DNA of 64,000 nt, taken from IMG/VR virus record IMGVR_UViG_3300018080_000104, positions 67,454 to 131,453 of that record; one strand, given 5' to 3'. Below are positions 4,932 to 28,926 of the stretch, one piece after another; the stretch's first letter is position 1, and each line of letters begins with the position of its first letter. This DNA is from a virus. Lineage: Duplodnaviria; Heunggongvirae; Uroviricota; Caudoviricetes. Under the pieces are notes generated by a model. It did no database searches. It was not told where the DNA came from and worked only from the letters and a program-made list of their open reading frames with translations. Position numbers and translations under genes: made by a program.

Positions 4932-5221
4932 TATTCTTTTCTTCGTTGTCGTGGTTGCTTGATGTTAATTTTATGCAATACTGCACGGAGTACAGCTGAG
5001 ATATCGGCCATGGCGGTATACAGCCTGTCGCGCTGCACATACAAGTCAACATCCTCTTCGAATAATTCATCCGCCAGGAACGTGAACAAACCATCGCCGC
5101 AATGTCTGTCGGTTCGTTTTAGAAAAGCGGCGGCCGTTTCATTCTCTTCGGGTGGATCGATCGGAAGCAGGTCGCTGTCCGGATACGCCGCGTAAAGGTC
5201 TTGAATCGTAAACGTCGTCAT
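4931..5221 (-). CDS. hypothetical protein
   Basis: ORF coupled to ligA (shared base at 4931). Confidence 0.65.
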   Translation of the reverse strand: MTTFTIQDLYAAYPDSDLLPIDPPEENETAAAFLKRTDRHCGDGLFTFLADELFEEDVDLYVQRDRLYTAMADISAVLRAVLHKINIKQPRQRRKE

Positions 5222-24684: not shown

Positions 24685-26340
24685 TTAAAAGGATTTGACA
24701 AAGTCGGCCATTACAGCCGGCGCAGCAGTGTCAAATCCTACAATATCCAGCATACCAGGATCCGACGCATCAGCCACGCTATACTCATTAGCCGCAAAAG
24801 CTACTGCAATGAGTTTTGCCGGCCGCTGCATTTTTTCGCGATACTGTTGCAGCGCTTGGACTGGATGGATGGGCCCCACCCAGTGCTCGTTGTCCGTATA
24901 GACAACAAACACGTCTACTGGTAGCTCGTGTTTCAAGGCATACAGTATCGGGAGCGAACAGTTTGTGCCCCCCGGCCGGTATCTGTGAGTCTTGCGTACG
25001 ATTTCCCGCATTGGTGTATTCGGCGGGTAATCCACGGGCACAACGCCGTATTTGCACCCGACCATGTCGGCATTCGAAAACACACACGTGTGTGTGTTCG
25101 TTTCCGTCCTGGATGTAATCATTGCCATAGCAGCCGCCGCTTCCCTGGCATGCAAAAACGTGCCAGCAATCACGCTGGCAGGCCACGCCATGGACGCCGA
25201 AATGTCGATTGCCAGCAAGTGATTCTTACCAGTGCATTCGACACTTTGGAACGTGCCGACGAAGGCATCGTCCAGTGCGCCAATCACACTGTGATCCGGC
25301 TGCCAGGTCAGTTTACCCCTTAGGCCGCAGCCCGCAGAATAAATGCTTGCAGCCATTAGTACAGCCATCGGATGCACGCGCTTACTGCACAACCAGTCAT
25401 GATCGTTGAGTTTCGCCGTGACCGTCTTAGCTGCTTCCGACAAAGGCACTAACAGCTTGACACTTGCCAGCTTGCCCAGGTTTCGCAGTAAGGCATGCGG
25501 AGGCATTTGTTCCAGCAGCGCCTCCCACACTTCCGGTGAATTGAGCGCCTCAGTGGGCAAGTGCTCGCGTTGCAGGCCGTATTCCCGGATCATTCCCGGG
25601 AGCGCCTTTACGGGCGCGCATTTTGCCTCTTCATAGGCCTGGATGATTTGTGGCCTATACTGCGGATCGGATGGAAAATGGCCATCCGCTGGCGGCGATT
25701 GTTTGCCAGTGGCCCACGCAAACGTTGCAGCCATTGCATTGCTAGTCGGCTTTGCGTGGCATTTTCGCAGGATGTCACAGTGGCTCCACGTGGCCCCTTT
25801 TTGGCCTTCGCGGACACGTCGGCTTCGGTATTTGCTGACCTGAAAAGCCAGCGCATCGACATCTTGCTCTGTGTACCAGCTGGCCACGCTATTGCGCAGC
25901 TTGCTGCCCCAGCCGCGGAAGTGCTGGACCATGTCGCAGAACTGCATAATGTGTGCGCCAATTCGGCAGACCTTACGTAGATTGGCTGCGACCATGTCGA
26001 CGCATTGTCGTTCGGCAGCCAGTCTTGCAAGGCAAAAGATTGCCGGATCGTTCTTTGGCGCTCGGCCGGAATCGGACACCTCGACGACCATATCGACGCA
26101 CCGTTTCGGATTTTCAGCCGTGCATTCCAGTAATGCCCGGCAGTTCGAAATGGTCAACTCTTTTTCGTTGGCATAGTATGTGCCGCCCTCGTTGCCGAGG
26201 ATCAAGAATCGTTCCAGTCGTTTCCAACAATCGAGTTGGAAACCAAAACCGCCTGCACGATTTGGCACTTGGTTTTTGCCGGGGATCGGCTCCGACGATA
26301 ATGTTTGTCGCGTGGATGTGTGACCAGCATAATCGGCCAT
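24685..26340 (-). CDS. rsr: Ro60/TROVE-domain RNA-binding protein with C-terminal vWA domain
   Basis: QVPNRAGGFGF...RLERFLILGNEGGTYY, GRAPKNDPAIFCLA, RGWG..LR..V..WY, KYR.R, LLRNLGKL, HPMAVL.A..Y..G.G, vWA MIDAS IDISASM, GGTNC, VYTDNE; AGGAGGAG ribosome-binding site. Confidence 0.97.
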   Translation of the reverse strand: MADYAGHTSTRQTLSSEPIPGKNQVPNRAGGFGFQLDCWKRLERFLILGNEGGTYYANEKELTISNCRALLECTAENPKRCVDMVVEVSDSGRAPKNDPAIFCLARLAAERQCVDMVAANLRKVCRIGAHIMQFCDMVQHFRGWGSKLRNSVASWYTEQDVDALAFQVSKYRSRRVREGQKGATWSHCDILRKCHAKPTSNAMAATFAWATGKQSPPADGHFPSDPQYRPQIIQAYEEAKCAPVKALPGMIREYGLQREHLPTEALNSPEVWEALLEQMPPHALLRNLGKLASVKLLVPLSEAAKTVTAKLNDHDWLCSKRVHPMAVLMAASIYSAGCGLRGKLTWQPDHSVIGALDDAFVGTFQSVECTGKNHLLAIDISASMAWPASVIAGTFLHAREAAAAMAMITSRTETNTHTCVFSNADMVGCKYGVVPVDYPPNTPMREIVRKTHRYRPGGTNCSLPILYALKHELPVDVFVVYTDNEHWVGPIHPVQALQQYREKMQRPAKLIAVAFAANEYSVADASDPGMLDIVGFDTAAPAVMADFVKSF

Positions 26341-26353
26341 TGGATACTCCTCC

Positions 26354-26448
26354 TGGCTAGAAAAGGAACGGCCGGGGCATTTGCCCGGCCGTTTACCCGG
26401 ACGCTTTCGCGTCCTTGCACATGCAGATAACCCTCTCGAATTCGGCCA
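26354..26448 (-). ncRNA. Y-RNA-like element 4, abutting the ro60 ribosome-binding site
   Basis: 5' UGGCCGAAU (26441-26448) and 3' UUUCUAGCCA (26354-26363); internal GGACGC-GAAA-GCGUCC hairpin and a 10-bp GC hairpin. Confidence 0.5.
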
Positions 26449-26478
26449 TCACAAGGGCTAATTGATCACGAAAGGGAG

Positions 26479-26551
26479 TGGCAGTCGGCGGAGTCGAACC
26501 GCTTTTATCCTAGCTATGCTAGAATCGTGTTGCCGTTACACTATTCTGCCA
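26479..26551 (-). tRNA. degenerate tRNA-like element (not a canonical decoding tRNA)
   Basis: UA-GUGU-AACGGCA-ACAC D arm; GCGG-UUCGACU-CCGC T arm; UGGCAG/CUGCCA terminal stem; middle arm is a 7-bp stem with a 5-nt CAUAG loop and no U33. Confidence 0.6.
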
Positions 26552-26558
26552 AATACCA

Positions 26559-26630
26559 TATTGCAGAGCTAATTGGTGCGACTGGTGCAAATTTACCATA
26601 AGTTAACCCAGCCTCTTCGGCCCTGCAATA
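26559..26630 (-). ncRNA. Y-RNA-like element 3 (short)
   Basis: UAUUGCAGGGC/GCUCUGCAAUA 11-bp terminal stem, then CGAAG opposite CCAAUUA, then GGCUGG/CCAGUC stem. Confidence 0.65.
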
Positions 26631-26638
26631 GGGTATAG

Positions 26639-26668
26639 TGCACACTAGCGGGGCCCTGCTAGTGTGCA
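26639..26668. other. perfect 11-bp hairpin separating Y-like elements 2 and 3
   Basis: TGCACACTAGC/GCTAGTGTGCA; on the minus strand the U6 run precedes the stem, so it is not a canonical terminator. Confidence 0.6.
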
Positions 26669-26675
26669 AAAAAGT

Positions 26676-26803
26676 CCTCGGCTAGTTGTTGAAGATCGGT
26701 TTTTAAGCCCGGGGTCGAACCGGGATCTCCGACATTGTCGGTGTTCTACCATTGAACTATCTTCGTTTTGATGGTAACGATAACGATCTTCATTCGGCCG
26801 AGG
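26676..26803 (-). ncRNA. Y-RNA-like element 2 with an embedded tRNA-like core (YrlA-like)
   Basis: CCUCGGC/GCCGAGG stem, CGAA opposite ACAACUA, UGAAGAUCG/CGAUCUUCA stem; inside are the D arm UAGUUC-AAUGGUA-GAAC and the T arm CCCGG-UUCGACC-CCGGG. Confidence 0.8.
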
Positions 26804-26817
26804 GGATCTCCGAAATA

Positions 26818-26887
26818 ACTTGTCGTAGCTAGTTGGATGGTTGGGGAGGTGATAACGGAGAACCCAACCATTTCGGCCGCGACAAGT
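26818..26887 (-). ncRNA. Y-RNA-like element 1 (short)
   Basis: ACUUGUCG/CGACAAGU stem, GGC/GCU, CGAA opposite CCAACUA, AUGGUUGGG/CCCAACCAU stem. Confidence 0.7.
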
Positions 26888-26899
26888 ATCCTCTGGACA

Positions 26900-26929
26900 A
26901 GCATACCCGGAGGAAAGCATACTTGTCAA
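26900..26929 (-). promoter_or_regulatory. sigma70-type promoter for the Y-RNA/ro60 unit
   Basis: TTGACA (26929-26924), 18-nt spacer, TATGCT (26905-26900); about 12 nt upstream of the 5' end of element 1. Confidence 0.6.
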
Positions 26930-27996: not shown

Positions 27997-28926
27997 TCAA
28001 AATGAATACACCAAGCCACCAAATCGCTGCAACAATTTAGTCTTTGAGTAAGACACGGGAAAGTTGTCGTCCCATTTAGTCCTCAGTGTAATGCAGTTGG
28101 CTTTCAGGCTACGCACCGAGCCAACCACTGTTCCTCTTGTTCTATGACTGGATTTCACTAAATCATAGTGGCGAAGACCGTTCTTCTCCGTACAAGTCTT
28201 GGTTGGATTTGCTTCCCAAACCTTCGCTCGTCTTGGTTGGATTTGGTATTCATTTCCAACCAATTTGTTGCTCTCTACTATCGCACAAGCGTCATGGCTG
28301 TGTTTCTTGGTCAAGCTAAGATTGAGCCGAGTTTGCTTAGTGATGTAGCCGAATGTCGCCTCATACATCAAACCTAACTTTTGTACTTGTTCTCTGAGAT
28401 AGGTCTTGCCAATTTCCACCAAAGAGAAGAACTTGCCATACTTGTATTTTGCGTGATTGAAACCAACTTCCTCAACCTTGACTTTCACGATGTTGAGTCT
28501 TTTCCCTAAGTCCTTGACTACACGCAAGATACATTCTTTTCTTTGTCTGATACTTGGAGCAATCTTTGATCCAGCTCTATTGCTGAACCTTGGTTGGCGA
28601 TTTCTAAGCCGAAACCGTCTGGCTCTGCGATAATTCCGTCTTTCTTCTACTTTCCTGCTCACATCCTGCCTGTGATCCAGTTGAGCGTGAAATACTACTT
28701 CATTGGTCTTGGTGTTCTTGACGGCAATGCCAACATGCTTCGCACCGTCGTCAACGCCAACCTCAAACTCTCCCACGGGATTATCTACCTTGCGGTTGAG
28801 TTGAATCGTGAAGGGAACCACTTGCTTGACCTTGGCTTTACCTTCACGCAGTAGTTTCCTACTGCGTGCTGGATGCGTTGGTAAGAGTGGTTTGCCTTCA
28901 CTGTCTATTACAAAAACAATACTCAT
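27997..28926 (-). CDS. isrB: IsrB-type RNA-guided nickase (PLMP + split RuvC + bridge helix, no HNH), 309 aa
   Basis: KPLLPTHPARSRKLLREGKAKV..VPFTIQL (PLMP/RRXRR), RuvC-I GVDDG, Arg-rich helix RRNYRRARRFRLR, RuvC-II VEE, RuvC-III HSHDACAI; no HNH or Cys insertion. Confidence 0.85.
   Translation of the reverse strand: MSIVFVIDSEGKPLLPTHPARSRKLLREGKAKVKQVVPFTIQLNRKVDNPVGEFEVGVDDGAKHVGIAVKNTKTNEVVFHAQLDHRQDVSRKVEERRNYRRARRFRLRNRQPRFSNRAGSKIAPSIRQRKECILRVVKDLGKRLNIVKVKVEEVGFNHAKYKYGKFFSLVEIGKTYLREQVQKLGLMYEATFGYITKQTRLNLSLTKKHSHDACAIVESNKLVGNEYQIQPRRAKVWEANPTKTCTEKNGLRHYDLVKSSHRTRGTVVGSVRSLKANCITLRTKWDDNFPVSYSKTKLLQRFGGLVYSF

Follow-up and report, generated by a model that had tools for sequence, protein, structure and literature searches.

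How a phage could join a Y RNA to a tRNA, and to what end, is the question raised by a short RNA encoded upstream of a phage ro60 gene. The DNA analysed here, referred to as the window, is a stretch of 64,000 nucleotides whose source record is a complete phage genome of 195,453 bp. An earlier note on this DNA, made from the letters alone, described a Y-like RNA at 26676-26803 that enclosed an unpermuted tRNA core (D, anticodon, T), with the acceptor stem absent, the Ro stem in its place and the anticodon loop cut to 3 nt so that it could neither decode nor be cut by anticodon nucleases. We asked how this RNA folds, whether it has relatives, how it compares with known Y RNAs and permuted tRNAs, and which explanation accounts best for its architecture.

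A Y-type RNA with tRNA arms in the ro60 leader

The RNA lies on the minus strand, is read from 26803 to 26676 and is 128 nt long. The arms quoted in the earlier note are present letter for letter on this strand inside the Ro-type stem: a D stem of 4 bp (26757-26754/26746-26743) closing a 7-nt loop, a stem of 5 bp in the anticodon position (26741-26737/26733-26729) with the 3-nt loop AAU, a variable region of 4 nt, and a 5-bp T stem (26724-26720/26712-26708) with a canonical loop. Two helices enclose these arms, an outer helix of 7 bp that carries GGCCGAA (26803-26797/26682-26676) and a second helix of 8 bp (26791-26784/26698-26691). ViennaRNA assigned pair probabilities of at least 0.97 to the outer helix, the anticodon-position stem and the T stem, 0.84-1.0 to the second helix and 0.38 to the D stem. 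The folding z-score is -4.3, and 0 of 200 shuffles folded equally well. The RNA of the plus strand was rejected as a candidate, as it folds less well and is without the Y motifs. The features of the locus are collected in Table 1.

The long stem made by the 5′ and 3′ ends is seen both in the fold and in the comparison with homologues, and a GNCGAAN0-1G motif is present near the 5′ end (26798-26791). The ro60 gene follows on the same strand, 336 nt downstream of the end of the element. With the terminal stem, the motif and the neighbouring ro60 gene in place, the assignment to the Y-type RNAs held. The non-coding leader of ro60 measures 590 nt and starts at a sigma70-like promoter; besides the element it contains a degenerate tRNA-like element and two or three further Y-like folds. 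In three other assemblies of the same phage the array is identical, with no variation. A strong hairpin without a U tail of its own (26640-26667, minus strand) directly follows the U6 tract and may be a processing signal or a spacer. About 1 kb upstream of the array lies an ORF of 309 aa with an RRXRR domain (IscB/IsrB-like; 27997-28926, minus strand).

Table 1. Features of the ro60 leader and of the Y-like RNA (window positions).
Feature	Position	Strand	Basis
sigma70-like promoter heading the RNA array and ro60	26900..26929	-	10/12 consensus; consensus match alone
Y-like RNA 1: short hairpin, same handle, pyrimidine-rich loop (YrlB/Yrn2-like)	26818..26887	-	fold; GGCCGAA and 3′ motif
Y RNA with acceptor-permuted tRNA module (putative); second among the four Y-like RNAs of the leader	26676..26803	-	fold, z-score, covariance model
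Ro60-binding stem (putative), 5′ strand; GGCCGAA at 26799-26793	26793..26803	-	sequence; fits GNCGAAN0-1G (PMC4201824); pair probability at least 0.99
Second handle helix, 5′ strand, 8 bp; partner 26698-26691	26784..26791	-	fold; two-sided changes at 8/9 pairs in homologues
GUUAUC junction motif, common to YrlA-type and other Y RNAs	26779..26784	-	found in Y RNAs with T before D, T only or D before T; 'YUAY' of PMC4201824
Distal acceptor hairpin: positions 69-72, ACCA (73-76, 26775-26772), 4-nt linker, positions 1-4	26764..26779	-	fixed-register test; ViennaRNA 0.39 here, at least 0.7 in 17/32 members
Proximal acceptor, positions 5-7 (AAG), then extra A 26760	26761..26763	-	comparison alone; ViennaRNA probability ~0
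U8-A9 and canonical D arm (A14, A15, G18, G19, A21)	26743..26759	-	Rfam tRNA alignment, fold
Anticodon-position hairpin, 5 bp, 3-nt loop AAU at 26736-26734	26729..26741	-	fold; loop length varies in family
Variable region (U48 with A15) and canonical T arm	26708..26728	-	Rfam tRNA alignment, fold
Proximal acceptor, 3′ strand, positions 66-68 (CUU); tRNA chain opened after 68	26705..26707	-	comparison
Second handle helix, 3′ strand	26691..26698	-	fold, homologues
Ro60-binding stem (putative), 3′ strand; CUAGCC here, mostly CUUGYCC in homologues	26676..26685	-	fold, homologues
U6 tract following the Ro stem; may mark the 3′ end or a processing site	26668..26673	-	sequence; function inferred
Y-like RNA 3: short, same handle	26559..26630	-	fold; covariance model R1 match, E 0.004
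Degenerate tRNA-like element, free, between Y-like RNA 3 and ro60; has D and T arms, an acceptor of 5 bp and an abnormal anticodon arm	26478..26550	-	fold; ARAGORN at lowered threshold only
Candidate Y-like RNA 4, abuts ro60 ribosome-binding site; terminator-like hairpin 26393-26367	26354..26448	-	motifs; enclosing stem not in MFE fold, tentative
ro60/rsr gene, 551 aa, TROVE and vWA_Ro60	24685..26340	-	PF25045 E 2e-56; PF05731 E 9e-25

ARAGORN at its default threshold called no tRNA in the element, and the Rfam tRNA model matched the core at 32.2 bits (cut-off 29). All of the elbow nucleotides are found (U8, A14, the 15:48 pair as A15:U48, G18, G19, U54, U55, C56 and A58). A functional tRNA was rejected, since the anticodon loop has 3 nt instead of 7 nt with U33 and purine 37, and there is no contiguous 7-bp acceptor followed by a 3′ CCA: just 3 nt follow the T arm and the rest lies 5′. 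It follows from the sequence that this RNA is unable to decode.

The acceptor stem is split around the handle

The stretches that join the core to the Ro stem had been taken for A-rich linkers in place of an acceptor. Of the two, the 3′ stretch (26704-26699) alone fits that description. The 5′ stretch (26779-26760) is a hairpin, CGUU-ACCA-UCAA-AACG, followed by AAG. In tRNA numbering CGUU corresponds to 69-72, ACCA to 73-76, AACG-AAG to 1-7 and the CUU after the T arm to 66-68. The result is a perfect 7-bp acceptor in two parts, of which the hairpin gives 4 bp and the 3 nt after the T arm give 3 more, with an extra A (26760) between position 7 and U8. The claim of an absent acceptor was therefore not borne out. 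On this alignment the element is a tRNA circularly permuted inside the 3′ strand of its acceptor: since the Ro stem is inserted into that strand, the core is permuted, at a point other than in YrlA, and the description of an unpermuted core has to be given up. The Ro stem does join the acceptor side, as the earlier note had placed it, but it is inserted into the acceptor rather than replacing it. No description of a split-acceptor class was found in the papers searched.

A family of related RNAs linked to Ro60

Ro60 neighbourhoods in viral contigs were gathered with an alignment query, a single-protein query having given no match. A common handle, GGGCCG-N10-GUUAUC, heads many RNAs in the resulting 160 neighbourhoods. 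Most of the RNAs behind it have the YrlA order (102 matches in 63 loci), and a few have the order D-anticodon-T. A pattern consisting of the handle, a D arm and a T arm, with no Ro60 term, matched 34 viral and at least 119 metagenomic stretches. After removal of ordinary tRNAs and of redundancy at 88%, 53 distinct RNAs were left, among them that of the window. A hairpin separates GUUAUC from the D arm in 32 of them, as in the window (subtype I), and is missing in the other 21 (subtype II). Of the Y-like loci, 43 measure at least 4 kb; Ro60 is encoded on the same strand at 31 of these and on the opposite strand at none, the loci not being dereplicated, and none of the 18 ordinary-tRNA matches of the same pattern was linked to Ro60. 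The pattern fixed the start of U8/D stem, GGUUC, GUUAYC and RGYCG, so that the invariance of these positions is not evidence; strict GNCGAA is found in only 9 of the 32 homologues, while RGYCG is kept, as the pattern required.

A covariance model built from 15 members with the window left out recovered the window element over its full length (75.8 bits, E 8e-20); the same model gave scores below about 60 bits to ordinary tRNAs and to YrlA-type RNAs. In the 15-sequence alignment 89.7% of the cells of seven helices are paired, versus 33-50% in slid controls. Two-sided changes occur at 28 of the 39 pairs, and all seven helices are supported by their pairing and, outside invariant positions, by such changes. 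Unaided, RNAalifold recovered five of the seven helices, the anticodon stem and the proximal acceptor not being found. Within subtype I the Levitt pair is complementary in 28 of 32 members (G:C in 17, A:U in 11), and the D-loop GG is present in 27 of 32. As judged from these comparisons, the element probably belongs to an undescribed subclass of phage Y RNA.

Members come mostly from phages and metagenomes. A pattern search of about 400 genomes each of Chloroflexota, Planctomycetota and Gemmatimonadota gave no member beyond the two known seeds; three further matches in these samples were ordinary-tRNA-like or chance in appearance. A loose DNA pattern was discarded, as its roughly 110 matches were mostly due to chance and none lay near Ro60. 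BLAST of one member against cultured phages returned partial tRNA-type matches only.

Subtype II has the same handle and the D-anticodon-T order, with an acceptor stub of 2-5 bp and the D-loop GG mostly missing. It is these 21 homologues that the picture of the earlier note fits. Subtype II is frequent among the metagenome matches (L320, L326, L331, L332, L387, L392 and others), and at loci L332 and L359 the two subtypes stand side by side. Many Ro60 loci (L127, L128, L132, L177, L196 and others) have a further arrangement of handle, T arm and then another handle, with no D arm, which suggests nested or multi-handle Y RNAs.

Register of the split acceptor across the family

The split acceptor was examined in a fixed register, in which the 7 nt before U8 were taken as positions 1-7 and their partners as the 5′ arm of the hairpin plus 0-4 nt after the T arm. 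All 7 pairs form in 22 of the 32 subtype I members and at least 6 of 7 in all 32 (shuffle means 0.3 and 3.6), counts that are inflated because subtype I is defined by having the hairpin and the 15 aligned sequences were picked for a 2-3-bp proximal stem. The register of NCCA and a per-pair shuffle test are less biased. NCCA, whose positions lie outside the fit, stands at 73-76 in 15 of 32 members, and loop shuffles gave a mean of 2.0 and a maximum of 7 (n=1000). It is also in register in 4 of 6 independent held-out members found without CCA in the query (one of them, L507, by eye). The pairs 7:66, 6:67 and 5:68 form in 31, 23 and 24 of 32 members, versus 26.9, 13.8 and 18.1 in shuffles, whereas pairing at 4:69 and 3:70 across the 32 members is at chance level; this difference points to an opening of the tRNA after position 66-68. 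The pairing statistics treat the members as independent sequences, and ViennaRNA gave the proximal acceptor pairs a probability of about 0 in every member.

The anticodon arm keeps its stem and varies its loop

The pairs of the anticodon-position stem are each kept in 29-32 of the 32 members. The loop on the 5-bp stem ranges from 2 to 12 nt, with 3 nt in 2 of 32 and the canonical 7 nt in 6 of 32; one Chloroflexota homologue likewise has 5 bp and 3 nt. In three close mycobacteriophage copies, those of Myrna, ScoobyDoobyDoo and a third relative, the loop differs from each to the next. Shape and elbow, rather than the anticodon loop, appear to be under selection. Since loop length is not conserved, the proposed purpose of resistance to anticodon nucleases finds no comparative support. 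The shortened loop itself is real in the window, where it precludes decoding, but it is not a trait of the family, and may be one result of relaxed selection where a loop does not decode.

Members in cultured mycobacteriophages

Mycobacterium phages Myrna, Phabba and ScoobyDoobyDoo each have a member. The core of the Myrna RNA (NC_011273.1 94666-94812; L665:6013-6159) is annotated as gene 161, 'tRNA Sup TTA', that of ScoobyDoobyDoo (L666, about 5013-5163) as gene 159, 'tRNA-Sup(cta)', and that of Phabba (93335-93504) as tRNA-Ser. Covariance model R1 scored 82 bits on the full RNA of Myrna and 86 bits on that of ScoobyDoobyDoo, in which NCCA is displaced by 4 nt. RF02553 and RF01053 gave no match to the homologues of these two phages. 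All three phages encode Ro60, with the gene about 37 kb from the RNA on the same strand. The same covariance model found no member in phages ET08 and Stanimal and a single match of 50.6 bits in phage Sixama. Going by their sequences, the three annotated tRNAs are better read as Y RNAs, and similar suppressor-tRNA calls by ARAGORN or tRNAscan in phages may therefore be wrong.

Comparison with known Y RNAs and permuted tRNAs

YrlA has the order T, acceptor, D (Chen et al. 2014, PMC4201824), and the D-anticodon-T order of the element is its reverse, as the earlier note had stated. A standard YrlA was rejected, as the order runs from acceptor tip through D and anticodon to T. RF02553 (YrlA, cut-off 69 bits) gave no match at the window element even at E<=10, so the colinear alignment that would have marked the element as an ordinary YrlA was not found; it also gave no match at gathering score in seven member loci. 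The arm order by itself has a precedent. Yrn1 of Deinococcus radiodurans (RF01053) was modelled opposite to YrlA, with an anticodon-like arm of 5 bp and a 6-nt loop between D and T (PMC4201824), and arm order alone is therefore not new.

The element shares with YrlA (RF02553; PMC4201824; 10.1101/312249) the GNCGAA handle, the YUAY junction, a same-strand Ro60 neighbour, conserved D and T arms with the elbow nucleotides, a loop-closed acceptor and a circular permutation of tRNA. The two differ in the point of attachment: in YrlA the handle is on the anticodon stem, whereas in the element it is in the acceptor 3′ strand and the anticodon arm is free. With Yrn1 it shares D-like, anticodon-like and T arms in tRNA order inside a Ro stem. 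By its published description Yrn1 lacks a full D arm and a V region, dihydrouridine was not detected in it, its Ro helix is of metazoan type, and neither a split acceptor nor NCCA has been reported for it (PMC4201824). RF01053 (cut-off 80 bits) gave no match at the window element even at E 10. The terminal helix forms in the element and the handle is of YrlA type, the Ro helix of Yrn1 being compared by its description.

Closed acceptors are known from other RNAs. The YrlA of Mycobacterium smegmatis has a 7-bp closed acceptor that is cut by RNase P and given CCA in vivo (PMC4201824); its helix is uninterrupted and its connectivity that of YrlA, whereas the handle junction breaks the acceptor helix of the element. 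Permuted tRNA genes of algae and archaea also have the tRNA 3′ part transcribed first and a closed acceptor (10.1101/312249). These genes are matured into decoding tRNAs, unlike the element, which has no usable anticodon loop and has a Ro60-type handle. Yrl1 and Yrl2 of Thermus phage phiLo are phage Y RNAs that, like the element, lie upstream of a phage ro60 gene (phiRo60; PMC12135203), but no tRNA-like module, anticodon, acceptor or permutation is mentioned for them in that paper.

The suggestion of an independent graft holds for the tRNA core but not for the handle, as GGCCG-N10-GUUAUC is the same in neighbouring YrlA-type RNAs. Among YrlA-type RNAs, 39 have the commonest spacing; in 36 of these the hairpin that follows GUUAUC has a 7-nt loop with purine 37, and the full canonical anticodon pattern is present in 23 of 39. 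YrlA-type RNAs with such a loop near Ro60 include L126, L142, L157, L211 and L218, among others. From these sequences, the 'V' hairpin of YrlA seems to be the distal anticodon stem-loop, and many YrlAs seem to retain an anticodon loop, at odds with what has been published on Salmonella YrlA. We infer that both classes are a whole tRNA circle opened in a strand of a terminal helix and set on the same handle, at 28/29 in YrlA and at about 66-69 in the class of the element. A tandem-tRNA origin has been proposed for YrlA (10.1101/312249). Either class could have arisen from tandem tRNAs, or one from the other by duplication and deletion of the core.

Discussion

We consider it probable that the element represents an undescribed subclass of Y RNA, in which a complete permuted tRNA on a Y handle acts as an elbow-presenting tether or decoy for a host RNA-handling protein. 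By comparison, a standard bacterial Y handle, with its bulged Ro stem, second helix and UUAUC, carries a tRNA body that is complete: it begins near position 67-69, passes through NCCA and a short linker to positions 1-7, continues through D, anticodon, V and T, and ends at about 66-68. The element, the other Y-like RNAs and ro60 would be transcribed together, from the promoter at 26929-26900, and phage Ro60 would bind at the GGCCGAA stem. The tRNA module is predicted to be L-shaped: the D/T elbow would be intact, the acceptor closed and the anticodon arm unable to decode. It may be the effector end of the particle, a nuclease-stable and elbow-presenting tether or decoy through which Ro60 is brought to a host RNA-handling protein. 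The architecture of the element, the family and the Ro60 linkage are shown by comparison. Against the proposal, ViennaRNA gives the distal hairpin just 0.39 and the D stem 0.38 in the window. The window member sits imperfectly with this proposal in having an extra A before U8 and CUAG rather than CUUG in the 3′ strand.

The likeliest partner is host PNPase, the activity of which would be redirected or damped in infection, although we would stop a little short of expecting this outcome. The proposal is made by analogy with RYPER and with phage phiLo. Both YrlA and Yrn1 serve to tether Rsr to PNPase (PMC4201824; 10.1101/312249). The Yrl RNAs of phiLo form ternary complexes with phage Ro60 and host PNPase, in which PNPase is slowed by ~70-76% (PMC12135203).

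The alternative that survives best is that the active form is a matured RNA. RNase P would cut 5′ of position 1, and trimming to the encoded CCA would leave a two-piece tRNA held by Ro60, with a free and perhaps chargeable CCA end but no anticodon that could be used, which serves as a decoy or modulator of tRNA-sensing host systems. We regard this as a possibility to be taken seriously, if not the one to be expected, and it is compatible with the tether or decoy reading, from which it differs in the active form. The total of 7 bp and the NCCA in register that are kept across the family favour maturation, as does the processing of the M. smegmatis YrlA, whose 7-bp closed acceptor meets RNase P and receives CCA in vivo (PMC4201824). 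Several features speak against it: NCCA is in register in only 15 of 32 members and is displaced in ScoobyDoobyDoo, the handle junction falls in the middle of the acceptor helix, the window member has the extra A at 7/8, and subtype II is without any distal acceptor. The phage has no CCA-adding enzyme, although none would be needed if CCA is encoded. A more sweeping form of this idea, in which Ro60-tethered two-piece tRNAs are widespread, opened by RNase P, with NCCA freed and perhaps charged by the host, and act as a phage decoy or as an amino-acid carrier on Ro60, is in our view unlikely.

Another alternative is that Ro60 and the tRNA mimic help an RNA ligase (RtcB, for example) in the repair of cut tRNAs, as has been proposed for Rsr/YrlA beside RtcB (10.1101/312249; PMC7824862). 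Many members of the family lie within tRNA arrays, which would suit this role. A search of the complete 195-kb genome found no RtcB, and a search for a CCA-adding enzyme in the phage genome found none. Above the Rfam cut-off there is one other tRNA-like gene in the genome, so that the phage has almost no tRNAs, and the ligase would be needed from the host. These observations weaken a self-contained repair role, and we hold it to be quite unlikely. The one other tRNA-like gene, L001 (G000:C1:16409-16481, minus strand), lies outside the window and has a normal T arm and an aberrant D arm.

The model of the earlier note, with an unpermuted D-anticodon-T core, no acceptor and a loop shortened against anticodon nucleases, is a shade less likely again. 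It can point to a 3-nt loop that is real and recurs on 5 bp in the Chloroflexota homologue, to the failure of thermodynamics alone to form the proximal acceptor, and to subtype II (21 members), in which there is a stub of 2-5 bp only. The perfect split 7-bp acceptor with ACCA in register in the window, together with the family statistics, stands against it, as do loops of 2-12 nt with six canonical ones of 7 nt and the three loops of Myrna, ScoobyDoobyDoo and their third close relative. Finally, that a decaying tRNA gene or integration-site remnant, functionless, came by chance to lie inside an inverted repeat is very improbable: the loss of the anticodon loop and free ends and a second degenerate tRNA-like element 130 nt downstream would fit, but this view is largely refuted by the perfect D, anticodon and T stems, the two enclosing helices, the linkage to Ro60 and an architecture that is shared across the family, with compensatory changes.

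Myrna, Phabba and ScoobyDoobyDoo grow on M. smegmatis, which has been shown to cut its own YrlA with RNase P, and the family is therefore directly testable. If the two-piece tRNA were true, the subclass together with YrlA would present one Y handle as a portable socket that can be set at different nicks of a circular tRNA. The predicted subclass keeps the handle and the D/T elbow while moving the attachment to the acceptor. It provides a natural experiment, indicating that what is selected would be the elbow and the 12-bp acceptor/T stack, rather than the geometry relative to Ro60 or the anticodon.
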